Shown piece by piece: positions 1 through 5,775 of a stretch of DNA of 18,890 nucleotides. A program made the translations under genes and the position numbers. The notes beneath the pieces were generated by a model. It did no database searches. It was not told the origin of the DNA and saw only the letters and a program-made list of their open reading frames with translations. This DNA is from a virus. The number at the start of each line of letters is the position of its first letter. Positions within the stretch are counted from its first letter, which is position 1. The stretch lies in UHGV virus genome UHGV-0367476. One strand, written 5' to 3'.

Positions 1-40
1 TAAACCCTGTTTTCCTTGCCATAGACACCATCCCTGTCTT

Positions 41-69
41 CCCCCACATGATGTGGGGGTCTTTTTTTT
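41..69 (+). terminator. Rho-independent terminator-like hairpin: 8-bp stem CCCCCACA/TGTGGGGG, 3-nt loop, then T8
   Basis: Perfect inverted repeat 41-48/52-59 followed by tttttttt at 62-69; oriented to stop a rightward transcript entering from the left flank. Confidence 0.6.
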
Positions 70-110
70 CAACGACTTACAAACTTTTCAGGCCAATTTT
101 ACCGTCCACA

Positions 111-128
111 CTGTCCACACTTCCGTTT
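111..128. repeat. Tandem direct repeat GTCCACACT x2; candidate integrase arm-type sites
   Basis: Exact 9-mer repeated head-to-tail at 111-119 and 120-128, between the window edge and the 3' end of int. Confidence 0.5.
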
Positions 129-158
129 CAGGCGGTTTCAGGCAGTCCCGAAACGGAA

Positions 159-181
159 AAATGCGTCCACATGTGGACGGA
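159..181 (-). terminator. Perfect 16-bp palindrome CGTCCACA/TGTGGACG with A5 on + strand (T5 on - strand) just after the int stop: int terminator and/or protein-binding site
   Basis: Palindrome at 166-181; int stop codon at 186-188; T-tract follows the stem on the minus strand. Confidence 0.45.
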
Positions 182-185
182 ATTA

Positions 186-1169
186 TCAGACTCCCAGCCC
201 CCCTTTCAGCGGATTCAGTGCGATAGCGTTCTGGAGATAATCCGGTGCCAGATGCGCATACGCCATCGTCTGCTGAATGCTGGCATGGCCAAGTATCTGC
301 TGAAGCGCAATGATATTCCCGCCGTTCATCATAAAGTGGCTGGCGAACGTGTGTCGCAGAATGTGGGTGGCCTGACCGCGTGGCAGGTCTGGCTTGACCT
401 TCCGCAGCTTCCGGCAGAAGTTTTCATAGTCCACCCGGAACAGCCCCGCGCTGGCGTTGGCCATAATTTCGTCTTCCAGTTCGGAAGAGATGGGAACCAC
501 GCGCTTTTTGCCGTTCTTCGTTTCCAGGAATACGACACGGCCGTGCATAATCTGCGATTCCGTCAGCGTACTGACCTCTCCCCAGCGTCCGCCTGTGCTG
601 AGGCACAGCAGGGCAACCAGTCGGTAATCGCCCGTCAGCGTGTCCAGCAGGCGGCTAATTTCCGGTTTTGTGAGAAAGGTCATGCCGGGATTTTTCTCTT
701 TCAGGGGAGGCAGACCACGCAGCGGGTTTTCCCCCTCAAACTCATCCAGCTTGATCAGTGCGCTGAACATGCCGGACAGCCGGTAAATATCGCGGTTGAC
801 CGTGGATGCGCTTATTCCCTGCGCCAGCCTGCGGCTGCGGTGGACTATCAGCATTCGTTTGTTAACCTCGCCTACCTGCGGATTATCCAGCGCGGTAATG
901 GTTTTGATGAGATGCCTGTTTTCAATCTCGCCATTCTTCTGCGTCTGGCCGTGGTAGAGCCACCACAATTCTCTGATATCGTCCAGCGTGCGCCTGTCAA
1001 TCTGTGCTGCCGGATCCCATTCCTTGCGCTGAAACTTACCCAGCATGTAGCGTTCATACGCAACAGCATCAGCCCTTCTGTTAAATATTTTGCGGATCCG
1101 CTTACTGGTGCGTCCGCCCGCTCTTGTGTCCAGTTCATAACGTCCATCATCGAGCTTCTTAATCGCCAT
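186..1169 (-). CDS. int: Tyrosine recombinase, P2-type phage integrase (327 aa from ATG at 1167-1169)
   Basis: N-terminus MAIKKLDDGRYELD and C-terminal HxLRHTFASHF...GHASIQQTMAYAHLAPDYL catalytic-Tyr region closely resemble P2 Int as recalled; GGAGGG Shine-Dalgarno 7 nt upstream of this ATG; the track's TTG start at 1226 adds 19 unsupported residues. Confidence 0.95.
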   Translation of the reverse strand: MAIKKLDDGRYELDTRAGGRTSKRIRKIFNRRADAVAYERYMLGKFQRKEWDPAAQIDRRTLDDIRELWWLYHGQTQKNGEIENRHLIKTITALDNPQVGEVNKRMLIVHRSRRLAQGISASTVNRDIYRLSGMFSALIKLDEFEGENPLRGLPPLKEKNPGMTFLTKPEISRLLDTLTGDYRLVALLCLSTGGRWGEVSTLTESQIMHGRVVFLETKNGKKRVVPISSELEDEIMANASAGLFRVDYENFCRKLRKVKPDLPRGQATHILRHTFASHFMMNGGNIIALQQILGHASIQQTMAYAHLAPDYLQNAIALNPLKGGLGV

Positions 1170-1253: not shown

Positions 1254-1574
1254 TTAACGGTGTGATTTTGCTGTTTTGGGGGTTAAATCCGGAATATCCT
1301 CCGGTTGCTCTGACCCATCAAGAGAGAGAGCCGGGGATATTTGACCTACCTCCGGCATGGTTTCGTCCGTTGAAAGCCAGTAAGCGTATTTTTTGAATCT
1401 TGGGTTTTTGGTTATCTTCATAAGAGCGCCTTCTGTTACTTGGAAACCCTTTGTTTCGTAGTTCGTTAGCGTTCCATAAGGTAAGCCAACTGCATCAGCA
1501 AACTCTTGGCGGGTCATTCCCTCAGCCTTGCGGATTAAACGAAACTTCTCACCCATACTTGACATATGTGCCAT
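1254..1574 (-). CDS. C: P2 C-type immunity repressor (106 aa from ATG at 1572-1574)
   Basis: MSSMGEKFRLIRKAEGMTRQEFADAVGLPYGTLTNYE... resembles P2 C (HTH ...GVPYGTLSYYE...); GGAGGA 10 nt upstream of the chosen ATG; tandem with int and divergent from cox as in P2; the upstream 105 codons of the track ORF are antisense to cox and the switch. Confidence 0.85.
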   Translation of the reverse strand: MAHMSSMGEKFRLIRKAEGMTRQEFADAVGLPYGTLTNYETKGFQVTEGALMKITKNPRFKKYAYWLSTDETMPEVGQISPALSLDGSEQPEDIPDLTPKTAKSHR

Positions 1575-1670
1575 GTAAGGAATATCCTCCATTTTGTAAT
1601 GTGTCACATGTGGAATGTTCCAGAGTGTTCTAGAACGGTCTGCAAAGGTTTGCAAAACGGAGGATAACAC
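1575..1670. promoter_or_regulatory. Lysogeny/lysis switch region between divergent C and cox (expected face-to-face promoters and operators)
   Basis: Divergent C/cox arrangement; contains palindrome CACATGTG (1605-1612), 10-bp palindrome GTTCTAGAAC (1627-1636) and direct repeat TGCAAA at 1641-1646 and 1651-1656 spaced one helical turn; exact -10/-35 not assigned. Confidence 0.6.
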
Positions 1671-1940
1671 ATGAACCTTGATGATTTGCTTATCAAGTAC
1701 CCGCTCGAAGGGGTGACAACTGAGAAGTTCGCGGAGCTGTTGGGTAAGTCTAAAAATGCCGTGGATATGATGGTTAAAGCGGACAAAATTCCTTTTATTG
1801 AAATTCAGGATCCGGAGAAGCCTGGAGCGCGTACGGAGAAACTGATTTGTATTGAGGAATTTAATAAAGGCATCCGGCTTGCATTTGCAAAAAAACCAAA
1901 AGCACAACGCGATGCGTGGCTAATGTGGTTAGGGCTTTAA
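1671..1940 (+). CDS. cox: Cox-type excisionase/early-promoter repressor (89 aa)
   Basis: C-terminus ...RDAWLMWLGL and overall size match P2 Cox (ending ...DGWLMWLGL as recalled); GGAGGA upstream of ATG; divergent from C. Confidence 0.9.
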   Translation: MNLDDLLIKYPLEGVTTEKFAELLGKSKNAVDMMVKADKIPFIEIQDPEKPGARTEKLICIEEFNKGIRLAFAKKPKAQRDAWLMWLGL

Positions 1941-2287: not shown

Positions 2288-2857
2288 ATGAAACATTTAA
2301 TGATTGACCTTGAAACAATGGATAATAAACCGACTTCTGCGATTGCTTCTATCGGTGCTGTGTTCTTTGACCCTGAAACTGGCGAAATGGGTGAGCAGTT
2401 TTATCAGCGCGTTAGCCTGGGCAGCTGTGTAGGCCACGATCTCTCTATGGGTTCAGAAACCGTATCATGGTGGATGCGTCAGGATGCCGAAGCGCGTAGC
2501 GAGCTGCTTAATGATGATTGCCTGGACTTGCCTCTGGCTTTAGCGAATCTGGAATCCTTTATTACTGAGCATTCTGACCCATCTAAAGTGCAGGTGTGGG
2601 GGAATGGTGCGGCGTTCGACAATGTTATTTTACGTAATGCATCAGATAAATGCGGGTTTGCCGATCCACTTTGGTACTACTGGAATGACCGTGATGTAAG
2701 AACGGTTGTTGAACTGTCAAAAACACTTGGGCTGAATGTTCGTAATATTATTAAGTTTGATGGTGTTAAACATCACGCTTTATATGATGCCATTCATCAG
2801 GCTAAAGTTGTTTCTTATGTCTGGATGTATCTTGTAAAAATAGCCAGTGTGAAATGA
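2288..2857 (+). CDS. DEDDh-family 3'-5' exonuclease (DnaQ/Orn-like fold), 189 aa
   Basis: Exo I motif MIDLETM (D-x-E), Exo II WGNGAAFDNVIL, Exo III HHALYDA; AAGGAG Shine-Dalgarno before ATG. Confidence 0.85.
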   Translation: MKHLMIDLETMDNKPTSAIASIGAVFFDPETGEMGEQFYQRVSLGSCVGHDLSMGSETVSWWMRQDAEARSELLNDDCLDLPLALANLESFITEHSDPSKVQVWGNGAAFDNVILRNASDKCGFADPLWYYWNDRDVRTVVELSKTLGLNVRNIIKFDGVKHHALYDAIHQAKVVSYVWMYLVKIASVK

Positions 2858-3078
2858 CGATGCTTACAGTGACCTCTCATGCAAGTGAAAGTGTCATAGT
2901 AAAGGCATTTTCTGTGCTGACGGAATATTACAGCGGCAAAAAAGTATATCAGGTTATAAAACCGCATCATTATTTCTCTGTTCATGTTTCTTATCGCTGG
3001 CGATTACTGAGTAAGGATAAGGGCAGAAGCTGGGAACTAATGACACATGAGCGATATAACAAGCAGTACAGAATATAG
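2854..3078 (+). CDS. Small hypothetical ORF (74 aa), uncertain whether expressed
   Basis: ATG overlaps exonuclease stop (ATGA); AT-rich; weak ribosome-binding context; could instead be non-coding regulatory/origin DNA upstream of the replication gene. Confidence 0.35.
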   Translation: MTMLTVTSHASESVIVKAFSVLTEYYSGKKVYQVIKPHHYFSVHVSYRWRLLSKDKGRSWELMTHERYNKQYRI

Positions 3079-3117
3079 TTTTTGCCTTTTACCCATTATT
3101 TCACATCTGGATTATTT

Positions 3118-5775
3118 ATGAACGAAACGATACAACAGGACGTTGTGCGCCGTCTTGTTCGGGATTTTGAATTTAAAGAGCGGGATAAGTATTTGCAGCA
3201 GGGCGTTTGCCCTGCCTGTCGTAAGCGCGAATTATTTACCAGCATAGAAAAGCCCTGGATTCTGAAATGTGGCCGTGAAAATAACTGCGCACATCAGATC
3301 GTCGTCAAAGAGCTGTATCCGGATATCTTTGAAGACTGGTCAAAACGGTACCAGGCCACAGAAGATAACCCTCATGCGGTAGCTGAGGCATATCTGCGCG
3401 AGGCAAGAGGGCTGGAGACTGATCCATTAAAAGGCTGTTTTACCCAGGGCACATTCGTGAAGGATGGCATGGGCTCGGCAACGGTCAGATTTTCGCTGTC
3501 ATGCGGTGCAACATGGGAGCGCATCATTGACCAGCCGCAGCGCTTTGGTAAGCAGAAAGCGAACATCAGAGGCAGCTATGTTGGTCACTGGTGGGTTCCG
3601 CCTTCTGTGAACCTGCTGGAAGTGAATGAAATCTGGATCACTGAGGGAATCTTCAACGCACTGAGTCTGTGCCAGGCAGGGTTACCTGCAGTTGCCACAC
3701 TGAGCAGTAATAACTATCCGCTGGCCGCACTGGATACGCTGGCCAAAGAACTGGGCGAAAAACCACGTCCACGTCTTGTATGGGCGTTTGACGGCGATAA
3801 AGCCGGCACAAAGCACACGCTGGCGTTCGCTGCCCGTAGTGATGCTGCAGGATGGAAAACCCGTGCCGCGCAGCCGGTGAAATCATCGGCATCGCTGGAC
3901 TGGAATGACCTGTTGTTACGTAACCGGTTCAGTAAGTCGGACATTAAAAATTATCGCTACTATGGCGATCTCCTTCTGGCAAAAAGCCCGACTGAGAAAG
4001 CCCTTCTTATGCATCAGCACAATGAATGGCACTCGTTTTATTTCGAACATGGTTCCCGCATGTACTGGTTTGAGCTGGATCTGGACAGGTACATGCGAGC
4101 CTATGAGCGCATCACCAATACCGGTACCGAAGTGGTGATGGAGTGGGAGGCAAAAGAACGGGCGGTTAAAGAGTCAGGCGGTGTGACCGAAATTGCCAAC
4201 TGCTGGCTGACGCCGCTTTATTTCCAGCGGTCTGAACCTACAGACGAGTCCTGGTATTACGTGAAGGTCAGTATGCCGAACCGGCCAGCCGTGAAAGATA
4301 CTTTTACGGCTAATCAGCTCACCAGTTCCGCCGAGTTCAAAAAGCGTCTTCTGCATATCGCCAAGGGGGCGGTGTATACCGGCAGTACCAAACAGCTGGA
4401 TAAGTTCATCCAGATGCGTCTGCCTGAAATCAAAGAAGTTAAGACGCAGAATTTCATTGGTTACAACAAAGATTATGCCGCCTGGCTGTTTAACCGTGTG
4501 GCCGTGTGTGATGGCCGGCTGTATGAGATGAACGACGAGGATTATTTCGAAATCAACAGCGCCAGCGTTAAGAGCCTGAGCCTCACGCCGGCGCTGGATC
4601 TGAATCCGAAGCTGAACGAATTCACCACGGGCTGGGTTGACGATATCTGGACAGCGTTTGGTGAAAAAGGGTATGTGGCGCTGGCGTTCTGGCTGGGGTC
4701 GCTGTTCGCTGAGCAAATCCGGGAGCGTGACAAGTCATTTCCGTTTCTGGAAATCGTGGGCGAGCCGGGGACAGGTAAATCCACGCTGATAGAATTTCTC
4801 TGGAAGCTCGCCGGCCGTGAGGAATACGAAGGGTTTGATCCTTCTAAATCAACAGCCGCAGCGCGTGGACGCAACTTTGCCCAGGTTGGCAACCTTCCGG
4901 TTGTGCTGATTGAGGGCGACCGCACCACGGATAACGCTAAACAACGCGCTTTTGACTGGGACGAGCTGAAATCACTGTATAACGGTCGTGCCTCCCGTGC
5001 CGTGGGTATCAAATCGAACAATAACGAGACGTATGAGCCGCCATTCAGGGGAAGCATTGTGATAGCGCAAAATGCCGACACAGACGGCAGCAAGGCGTTT
5101 CTGGAGCGTATCATACACATCTATACCGACAAGCGCGGCCAGTCCATTCAGACCCGCTACGCCGCCGAACGGCTTGAACAGATACCCGTTAGTCAGGTAT
5201 CCGGGTTCACACTGCTGGCCACCATGCGTGAAAAAGAAATCATGAAGGTGTTCGGTCAGGGCTACGAACGCGCCCGTAGTGAGCTGGAGTCCAATACCAA
5301 CATTCGTCATATTCGTATCGCCAAAAATCACGCGCAACTGGTTGGTTTGCTGGAAGCGCTGGCGCTGGTTGTGCCGGTACCGGTGGAACGTATTGAGAAG
5401 ACCCGCGAGGCCATCACCGCGCTGGCTGTGGAACGTTGCCAGGCACTTAAAAAGGATCACCCTCTGGTACAGGAGTTCTGGGAGCTGTTTGATTATCTTG
5501 ACGAGCTGGCACCGCACGGCATTAACCATTCATCGGATGAAGGGGAAATTGCGGTCAACTTTAACCATCTGGAGGAAGTCGCCGCCGCCCACCGGCAGCG
5601 TATTCCGTTTACGCTAACCGAGATTAAAAAGCTGCTTAAAAACGGCAATGAGCGCCGTTTTATCGACACAAAAACCACGCGCAGTGCGGTGAGTGAACGT
5701 CATAACCGTGGCAAAGGTGAAATGCAAAGAATGCCGGACACTTTCCGGTGCTGGATTTTCCGCAGGGGGAATTAA
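3118..5775 (+). CDS. Replicative primase-helicase: N-terminal Zn-ribbon, Toprim primase core, C-terminal P-loop NTPase (885 aa from ATG 3118; TTG at 3082 possible)
   Basis: CPACRKRE...KCGRENNCAH zinc ribbon; Toprim-like ITEGIFNALSL and WAFDGDKAG; Walker A GEPGTGKST; occupies the slot of P2 replication genes B/A but is not an A-type rolling-circle initiator. Confidence 0.85.
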   Translation: MNETIQQDVVRRLVRDFEFKERDKYLQQGVCPACRKRELFTSIEKPWILKCGRENNCAHQIVVKELYPDIFEDWSKRYQATEDNPHAVAEAYLREARGLETDPLKGCFTQGTFVKDGMGSATVRFSLSCGATWERIIDQPQRFGKQKANIRGSYVGHWWVPPSVNLLEVNEIWITEGIFNALSLCQAGLPAVATLSSNNYPLAALDTLAKELGEKPRPRLVWAFDGDKAGTKHTLAFAARSDAAGWKTRAAQPVKSSASLDWNDLLLRNRFSKSDIKNYRYYGDLLLAKSPTEKALLMHQHNEWHSFYFEHGSRMYWFELDLDRYMRAYERITNTGTEVVMEWEAKERAVKESGGVTEIANCWLTPLYFQRSEPTDESWYYVKVSMPNRPAVKDTFTANQLTSSAEFKKRLLHIAKGAVYTGSTKQLDKFIQMRLPEIKEVKTQNFIGYNKDYAAWLFNRVAVCDGRLYEMNDEDYFEINSASVKSLSLTPALDLNPKLNEFTTGWVDDIWTAFGEKGYVALAFWLGSLFAEQIRERDKSFPFLEIVGEPGTGKSTLIEFLWKLAGREEYEGFDPSKSTAAARGRNFAQVGNLPVVLIEGDRTTDNAKQRAFDWDELKSLYNGRASRAVGIKSNNNETYEPPFRGSIVIAQNADTDGSKAFLERIIHIYTDKRGQSIQTRYAAERLEQIPVSQVSGFTLLATMREKEIMKVFGQGYERARSELESNTNIRHIRIAKNHAQLVGLLEALALVVPVPVERIEKTREAITALAVERCQALKKDHPLVQEFWELFDYLDELAPHGINHSSDEGEIAVNFNHLEEVAAAHRQRIPFTLTEIKKLLKNGNERRFIDTKTTRSAVSERHNRGKGEMQRMPDTFRCWIFRRGN

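Follow-up and report, generated by a model that had tools for sequence, protein, structure and literature searches.

Natural mosaics point to a predicted operator map for a P2/WPhi-like lysis/lysogeny switch

Which of the short repeats between a phage repressor gene and an excisionase gene are read by the repressor, and which by the excisionase? We addressed this question in a stretch of 18,890 nucleotides from the virus genome UHGV-0367476, called the window here. A sequence-only reading of the region between C and cox (1575-1670) had singled out the 8-bp palindrome CACATGTG at 1605-1612, the 10-bp palindrome GTTCTAGAAC at 1627-1636 and direct TGCAAA repeats at 1641 and 1651. All of these elements are present at those positions. 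That reading took CACATGTG, which recurs in a palindrome beside int, as the site of a Cox-like protein acting at both places, and it took the TGCAAA repeats as candidate C operators. Our analysis points to the opposite allocation, and the two motif assignments were most likely swapped. We give a probability of about 70% to the reading that 1559-1670 is a P2/WPhi-like lysis/lysogeny switch in which C would act on two putative half-sites, O1 and O2, and Cox would act on an array at 1617-1656 and on a second array in the att arm.

The left end of a P2-like prophage and its mosaic relatives

In the window we see the left end of a P2-like prophage in its integrated form, with the order attL, int, C, switch, cox. 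The bacterial flank of attL covers positions 1-24 and opens with a host gene's stop codon. L005 (Pseudocitrobacter), L034, L040, L041 and L043 have this flank ahead of their prophages too, and the sequences of Escherichia phage ESSI2_ev239 and WPhi diverge from the window to the left of position 25. The att core segment that follows (25-81) is common with WPhi-type attP. It is 93-95% identical to the att regions of WPhi, P2-like phages and SW5, and it includes a terminator-like hairpin (41-59) and then a T run.

Three genes frame the switch. int (186-1169, minus strand) codes for a tyrosine integrase that matches the Pfam families Int_N (1.1e-29) and Phage_integrase (3.5e-19) and is annotated in ESSI2_ev239. 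The gene for the C immunity repressor, a member of the P2 C family, occupies 1254-1574 on the minus strand, with a predicted ATG start at 1574. Its product of 106 amino acids matches HTH_3 and, over residues 6-90, the 'C protein' structures PDB 2xcj/2l49 (E 3.6e-18), and it is 41-45% identical to the C proteins of P2, WPhi and L-413C. cox (1671-1940, plus strand) codes for a Cox-family excisionase and Pc repressor with matches to Pfam PF10743 (Phage_Cox, E 5.7e-21) and PDB 4lhf (P2 Cox, E 8.7e-16). These matches identify both proteins as homologues of their P2 namesakes, encoded in P2 gene order, and the P2-type C/Cox framework proposed in the sequence-only reading stands. The replication module in the window is not P2 A/B.

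The closest phage is ESSI2_ev239 (Evevirus, NC_049392), which is 96.6% identical to the window over 25-2418 and 100% identical over the aligned stretches of the switch and the att P' arm. It has an O-acetyltransferase gene left of position 25, where the window has host flank, and its annotated C start reaches window position 1607, crossing the proposed O2. This switch type was seen in ESSI2_ev239, one Pseudocitrobacter prophage and several metagenome contigs. Scanning genomes with Cox returned one locus only, L005. A near-identity search of 1254-1940 gave no matches among 5,426 complete E. coli genomes, and there is therefore no E. coli comparison set. An Rfam scan of 1-2400 gave no match in the switch.

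Scanning collections of phages, viruses, genomes and metagenomes gave us relatives with reshuffled modules. All identities are given relative to the window. Two groups of relatives form a double dissociation. L005 (C 61%, Cox 100%, Int 97%), L035 (C 47%, Cox 85%, Int 82%) and L036 and L043 (C 48%, Cox 89%, Int 98% in both) keep Cox at 85-100% identity while C has diverged to 47-61%. These four loci preserve the motif GAACGGTCTG and the 10-bp phasing of the array in front of cox, and their O1/O2 sequences are entirely different. The reverse holds for the PhiR44_2 type (L011 and others; C 84%, Cox 39%, Int 54%) and L028 (C 76%, Cox 38%, Int 54%), which keep C at 76-84% identity with a Cox that is only 38-39% identical. 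Both retain Pe and the layout of O1/O2, TGCCAY included, and their array is replaced by TAAGCC units. The remaining mosaics used were L034 (C 80%, Cox 90%, Int 96%), L042 (C 80%, Cox 88%, Int 92%, the last partial), L041 (C 96%, Cox 90%, Int 97%), L007 (C 89%, cox gene truncated, Int 82%) and L009 (C 81%, Cox 48%, Int 80%). Because natural mosaics of this kind retain one of the two proteins and exchange the other, they tell the two sets of sites apart and make operators assignable without experiments. Positions, repeat statistics, protein homology and co-variation across the mosaic relatives were established directly.

A phased candidate Cox array in front of cox

Four tandem 10-bp units, GTTCCAGAGT, GTTCTAGAAC, GGTCTGCAAA and GGTTTGCAAA, occupy 1617-1656 on the plus strand and form a candidate Cox-box array. 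The units start at 1617, 1627, 1637 and 1647. GTTCTAGAAC has a single occurrence and is unit 2 of this array, not a separate palindrome. Together with the two plus-strand TGCAAA copies it makes up units 2-4. Self-identity at a lag of 10 is 0.65 over 1617-1660, a value that none of 2000 shuffles reached. We also scored the window with a unit matrix built from the units of L005, L034, L035 and L036, with the window left out. The best four-unit phased array that this matrix found was 1617-1656, with a score of 25.6 vs 9.6 for the next independent site.

The array recurs across relatives in a form that corresponds to the type of Cox. Loci with a window-like Cox recognition helix carry 4-7 phased nGTCYnnAAn units between O2 and the cox ribosome-binding site, which in the window reads GGAGGA (1660-1665, plus strand). 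The most conserved stretch of the array, GAACGGTCTG(CAA), is present even in SW5, whose Cox is 57% identical. Unit 2 of L041 reads GTTCTTGAAC, with the 10-bp phasing unchanged. GTC-type units go with the Cox helix GKS.NA[VI][DE]MM, and TAAGCC units, spaced 10-11 bp apart in PhiR44_2, go with the helix GRKESTVRTM of the PhiR44_2 type. L009 has similar GTCT units even though its Cox is only 48% identical, and it is therefore the recognition helix, more than identity over the whole protein, that the array follows. The P2 cox-box TTAAAG/CNCA, for which membership needs at least six copies of the 9-bp consensus, was found neither in 1575-1670 nor in 82-185 when up to one mismatch was allowed. The specificity here therefore differs from that of P2 Cox.

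The pattern of 1617-1656 is the one expected for Cox boxes and not for C operators. Cox, Apl and Xis bind head-to-tail on tandem repeats one turn apart, either over Pc or between start sites (PMC7498355). For C half-sites, which are placed around the Pe -10 or -35, the spacing is 22 bp in P2, 26 bp in P2 Hy dis and 34 bp in WPhi (PMC1904268). The TGCAAA repeats do not fit the second pattern: they are 10 bp apart, beside the cox ribosome-binding site and 15-30 bp from the cox ATG, whereas C operators are found 22-34 bp apart around Pe (PMC1904268). In the mosaics they follow the Cox type, and units bearing TGCAAA persist beside unrelated C proteins in L035 and L036. The TGCAAA repeats thus most likely belong to the Cox-type array.

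A different account of 1617-1656 is that it is a conserved promoter and leader, made up of the Pc -35 and -10 and the signals for cox translation initiation, with no protein array and with Cox acting elsewhere or non-specifically. The best candidate for the lysogenic promoter Pc, a weak one, does lie inside the array (1627-1655, minus strand), with a -35 of TTGCAA at 1655-1650, a 17-bp spacer and a -10 of TAGAAC at 1632-1627. No other position for Pc is P2-like; here the distances to the cox ATG are 19 and 42 bp, in agreement with the Pc annotated in P2. CTGCAA is TTGCAG on the minus strand, and TTGCAA is a -35-like sequence at the P2 Pc distance. In addition, 1650-1666 is 88% complementary over 17 nt to the C leader at 1583-1599, which suggests constraints from translation signals. 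This candidate Pc is not established because its -10 is without the final T, and sigma-70 scoring found no convincing minus-strand promoter for Pc at any locus compared. What makes the promoter-and-leader account unlikely, however, is the behavior of the repeats themselves. The lag-10 periodicity is significant in seven relatives as well as in the window, and the unit sequences differ among them. The number of units varies while the phasing is kept (about seven in L007, five in L035), so that array length changes by whole units; the intergenic region of L007 is 29 bp longer than that of the window. PhiR44_2, with its different Cox, has a different phased unit, TAAGCC, and one further copy of that unit recurs in its P' arm. 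A promoter alone has no need of 4-7 phased repeats. We favor the reading of 1617-1656 as a Cox array, in which Cox would polymerise on the four head-to-tail units and thereby shut off a leftward Pc.

Putative C operators and the att P' arm

The predicted early lytic promoter Pe lies at 1559-1588 on the plus strand, with a -35 of TTGACA (1559-1564), an 18-bp spacer and a -10 of TATCCT (1583-1588). Its start is predicted near 1595. In each of the 12 loci compared, Pe scores highest among plus-strand promoters and its position is unchanged. These loci include SW5 as well as WPhi; the layout of the WPhi -35, -10 and operators has been published (PMC1904263). Its -35 adjoins the C start, as in the P2 annotation. 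The C ribosome-binding site is read from the sequence as GGAGGA on the minus strand (1585-1590), and its CTCC is kept in all relatives.

At the sequence level, two copies of an element of about 17 bp flank the Pe -10. The first, the putative C operator half-site O1 (TGCCATGTAAGGAATAT, 1569-1585, plus strand), falls between the -35 and the -10. The second, the putative half-site O2 (TGTCACATGTGGAATGT, 1602-1618, plus strand), is 33 bp from O1. Every locus has a repeated element directly after the Pe -35, in copies that are 31-35 bp apart and flank the -10. A matrix built from L007 and L009 only ranked 1569-1585 first and 1602-1618 second among about 37,700 window positions. The repeat between the window's own O1 and O2 is weak, with 11/17 matches at offset 33 and 12/17 at offset 35, and 33 of 500 shuffles reach it. 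The assignment of O1 and O2 in the window is thus putative and rests on positional homology. O1 is the positional homologue of strong repeats in L005, L011, L028 and L036 and of WPhi O1 (PMC1904263). In these relatives the strong operator repeats are 31-33 bp apart, at a position equivalent to that in the window. The two copies read GGTCTCACTTGTGA and GGTCTCACATGTGA in L005 and ATGCCATATCGGGCA and ATGCCACATCGGGCA in the PhiR44_2 type (L011), and in neither case did any of 500 shuffles reach the observed match. Three of 500 shuffles did so for L028 and 7 of 500 for L036.

The variable 3' part of O1/O2 tracks the recognition helix of C. GGAAT accompanies the helix ..NYETKG in the window, L007, L009 and L041, and GGCAT accompanies ..NYEVRG in PhiR44_2 and L028. 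L005, L034 and L036 have other O1/O2 sequences alongside other C helices. Given this tracking and the placement of O1 and O2, CACATGTG would be the dyad-like centre of O2.

This placement counts against the proposal that CACATGTG is a Cox site shared by the switch and the att arm, with the TGCAAA repeats serving as C half-sites. Several observations are in keeping with that proposal. CACATGTG is found only at 168-175 and 1605-1612 in the 18.9 kb (0.45 copies expected; two or more in 17 of 200 shuffles), and the word shared by the two places extends to 10 bases. CACATGTG likewise stands at O2 in L005, whose C differs from that of the window but whose Cox is identical and whose att arm is the same. 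The family facts that were invoked hold as well: P2-family Cox proteins act at Pc and attP (PMC3936717), and C binds repeated half-sites (PMC1904268). The mosaics nevertheless make the proposal very unlikely. In L034, L042 and L043, Cox is 88-90% and Int 92-98% identical, yet the switch is without CACATGTG in all three. In L034 and L043, where the att palindrome is identical and Cox and Int are nearly the same, the O2 position reads CTAATTAG or TACATGTA. In L042 (Cox 88%, Int 92% from a partial sequence), whose contig stops short of the att arm, it reads CTTATTAG. Conversely, L007, L009 and L028, with other Cox or Int types, keep CATATGTGG at O2. L007 and L009, which have a window-like C (and, in L009, a Cox of 48% identity), keep CATATGTGGAA there. 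Known sites for Cox, Apl and Xis consist of at least three phased direct repeats, not of one 8-bp palindrome per region (PMC7498355, PMC3936717), and the att copy is accounted for by two TGTGGAC arm-type sites (PMC3448106). We conclude that CACATGTG in the switch most likely follows C, and not Cox, Int or the att arm, and sits in a C operator. Long and perfect palindromes are common at the downstream operator within this branch of the C family, an observation relevant to the way in which a symmetric P2 C dimer recognises 'direct repeats' (PMC2995052). That this C clade binds palindromic sites would be a weaker variant of the one-protein reading taken up below.

The palindrome beside int does hold CACATGTG (168-175), but its span had been given as 166-181; the palindrome is the 16-bp CGTCCACATGTGGACG at 164-179. 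It is formed by two inverted integrase arm-type sites, at 165-171 (minus strand) and 172-178 (plus strand), and CACATGTG is their junction, where GTCCACA abuts TGTGGAC. It would thus serve as a pair of Int sites, and it is possible that it also acts as a terminator hairpin for the C-int transcript. Two direct arm-type sites, both exact matches to TGTGGAC, are found at 104-119 on the minus strand (104-110 and 113-119). TGTGGAC has 8 copies in the window vs 2.2 expected, a number that none of 200 shuffles reached, and 4 of the 8 copies are within 104-178. The arm consensus of P2-type integrases is tgTGGaCa (PMC3448106). The P2 RefSeq record annotates arm sites of the form TGTGGAC(A), and the arms of WPhi and SW5 carry the same motif. 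In the window one pair (104-119) is direct and the other (165-178) is inverted; P2, WPhi and SW5 have direct pairs only. The P' arm also contains an isolated copy of the repeat TTTCAGGC, of direct-repeat family D1, at 85-94 (plus strand).

A better candidate than the palindrome for Cox binding in the att arm is the array at 124-153 (plus strand), in which CGTTTCAGGC, GGTTTCAGGC and AGTCCCGAAA follow one another with a 10-bp period. The unit matrix from the relatives places 124-153, scored as an array of three units, 5th of 37,722 positions, and AGTCCCGAAA, scored alone, is also 5th. The array lies between the core and the int-proximal arm sites, matching the annotated P2 Cox site. This is the weakest of our assignments. 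The units in the att arm bear only a loose resemblance to those in the switch, neither their orientation nor their register is unambiguous, and a CGTTTCAGGC-like sequence is also present in the P' arm of PhiR44_2, where Cox differs. The P' arm is near-identical in every relative recovered from the genome, metagenome and viral scans, and co-variation on the att side could therefore not discriminate. As a separate candidate for a Cox motif we considered AAACGGA, which is common to the att arm (151) and the switch (1655). We rejected it because L005, with identical Cox and att, reads AAAGCGAGG there.

The att arm and the switch have a longer word in common than CACATGTG, namely the 10-mer CACATGTGGA (168-177 and 1605-1614). 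When the two regions, each about 100 bp long, were shuffled, 21 of 2000 trials gave a common word of 10 bases or more, and the 10-mer is therefore nominally unusual. This identity of O2 with the arm palindrome is not conserved among relatives. We attribute it to coincidence between what appear to be two independent TGTGGA-based dyads. The notion that one protein, either the Int arm-binding domain or the C dimer, reads the TGTGGA dyad at both O2 and the P' palindrome, which would link prophage recombination to the lytic promoter and bypass Cox, can draw on the nominally non-random 10-mer, on the 6/7 bases of the arm-type core held by O2 (TGTCACA next to TGTGGAA, compared with GTCCACA next to TGTGGAC in the palindrome) and on the co-transcription of int with C in P2-type phages (PMC2995052), but it is very unlikely, as the att palindrome ranks only 411th by the operator matrix, L034, L043 and the PhiR44_2 type have TGTGGAC-type arms with no TGTGG at O2, and such activity is not reported for P2 or WPhi in the P2-family literature cited here. 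Binding of C to the att palindrome was rejected on this rank.

In the model that we favor, Pe would drive transcription rightward into cox, and a C dimer of the P2 C family would repress Pe from O1 and O2, three helical turns apart. Cox, in addition to its proposed action on the array in front of cox, would act on the related phased array at 124-153 and direct excision. Every contact between protein and DNA in this model is inferred, and so are the starts of transcription and Pc.

Comparison with 186, P2 and WPhi

Set beside 186, P2 and WPhi, the switch appears to represent an immunity type that is uncharacterised among P2-like phages; Karlsson et al. reportedly defined immunity classes I-VII in 2006. 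The result is a predicted operator map for this type. Its design is otherwise that of P2, WPhi and 186 and is unsurprising.

The candidate Cox arrays can be likened to the sites of 186 Apl. Apl is an excisionase and regulator that acts on 5-7 direct repeats with a spacing of 10-11 bp. Its sites lie between the convergent lytic and lysogenic promoters and at attP, and at least three adjacent sites are needed (PMC7498355). The resemblance to 186 does not extend to the repressor: 186 has a two-domain CI repressor with inverted-repeat operators, plus CII. The integrase in the window falls into the P2 group and not the 186 group on the evidence of its N-terminal domain and arm-type sites (PMC3448106).

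P2 has homologous C and Cox proteins and a similar arrangement of sites. Its RefSeq record annotates the Pe -35 beside the C start, O1 and O2 around the Pe -10, and Pc 18-43 bp upstream of cox. The window has the same placement of Pe and of its putative operators, and Pc, in the window a candidate only, falls about 20-45 bp upstream of cox in both. The record also places the attP Cox site between the core and the Int sites of the P' arm, where we propose the second array. P2 differs in its half-sites, which are 8 bp long and 22 bp apart (PMC1904268), and in having the cox-box TTAAAG/CNCA, which neither 1575-1670 nor 82-185 contains, and an A/B replication module, which is not that of the window.

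WPhi, of immunity class III, shares with the window the order int, C, then cox on the opposite strand. Both have a Pe of the form TTGACA + TATnnT with direct C half-sites around the -10, 34 bp apart in WPhi vs 33 here (PMC1904268, PMC1904263), and both have the att core segment (25-81) and TGTGGAC-type Int arm sites. WPhi Cox is 53% identical, and the WPhi switch repeats CCTAGAARGGAC resemble the TCTAGAAC units of the window. In contrast, C is only 42% identical, and the half-sites read TATTGGTGAC in WPhi vs TGYCAYRTnnGGAAT here. The intergenic region is about 150 bp in WPhi vs 96 bp in the window, and the WPhi transcripts overlap by 82 nt (PMC1904263) vs a predicted overlap of about 25 nt. 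Compared with WPhi, the window alone has a contiguous candidate Cox array of four units with a 10-bp period, and it alone has four P' arm-type sites that include an inverted pair.

Putative operator and motif repeats in related switches

The longest array of tandem candidate Cox sites, at approximately seven units, lies in the switch of L007, a metagenomic relative in which cox (2759-2875, - strand) reaches a stop after 39 codons. In another relative, PhiR44_2 (regions 1388-1470 and 2925-2960), three copies of a TAAGCC unit lie upstream of cox at a spacing of 10-11 bp. One further TAAGCC is present in its P' arm, the att arm beside int, immediately ahead of the Int arm sites. As judged from these repeats, motif sharing between the switch and the att arm is clearer in PhiR44_2 (TAAGCC) than in the window.

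Perfect palindromes of 20-22 bp occupy the position of O2, the putative downstream C operator, in the switches of a Pseudocitrobacter prophage locus (L005, approximately 2915-2936), L036/L043, and L034 (TTGGTCTCACATGTGAGACCAA, TTGGATTACATGTAATCCAA, and AGCATGTCTAATTAGACATGCT, respectively). O1 in these relatives is a copy of only the left half of the O2 palindrome. Repressors of the P2 C family are usually described as binders of non-palindromic direct repeats, and the palindromic O2 in these loci departs from that picture.

Mirrored leaders and the start of C

The C leader (1583-1599, TATCCTCCATTTTGTAA) mirrors the cox leader (1650-1666, TTGCAAAACGGAGGATA), with 88% complementarity over 17 nt. 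Both leaders contain the ribosome-binding site GGAGGATA, and their symmetry takes in the second TGCAAA. The RefSeq annotation of the relative ESSI2_ev239 begins C with a GTG that aligns with position 1607 of the window (window 1575-1607 corresponds to 3051-3083 in ESSI2_ev239). Extending C to this GTG would cross the proposed O2 and the -10 element of Pe, the predicted early lytic promoter. ATG 1574 is more likely to be the C start than the annotated GTG because it is favored by homology with the C proteins of P2 and WPhi and by the GGAGGA site.

The att site and its host flank

Window positions 1-67 (- strand) gave a sub-threshold Rfam match to the Hrs1 family of Hfq-regulated sRNAs (E 1.4e-7; 47.9 bits, where the gathering score is 56.4), which is incomplete because the window edge interrupts the sequence. 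This match takes in the host flank as well as the att core, suggesting that the WPhi-type att site may be within or beside a host sRNA gene. The P' arm (104-178) contains four Int arm-type sites, of which two form a direct pair on the - strand and the other two an inverted pair, whereas P2, WPhi, and SW5 each have one direct pair adjoining int.

Module distribution and the early region

A search of 5,426 complete E. coli genomes gave no near match to the C-cox module (1254-1940), even though the closest phage record bears an Escherichia phage name. A prophage of Pseudocitrobacter vendiensis encodes a Cox identical to that of the window, paired with a different C. Downstream of cox, the early region (2288-5775) is unlike that of P2. 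It codes for an Rv2179c-like 3'-5' exoribonuclease (2288-2857) and for a protein with a ParE-like toxin domain (2854-3078). A primase-like protein of 897 aa with Toprim and DUF5906 (3082-5775) holds the place of B and A in P2.
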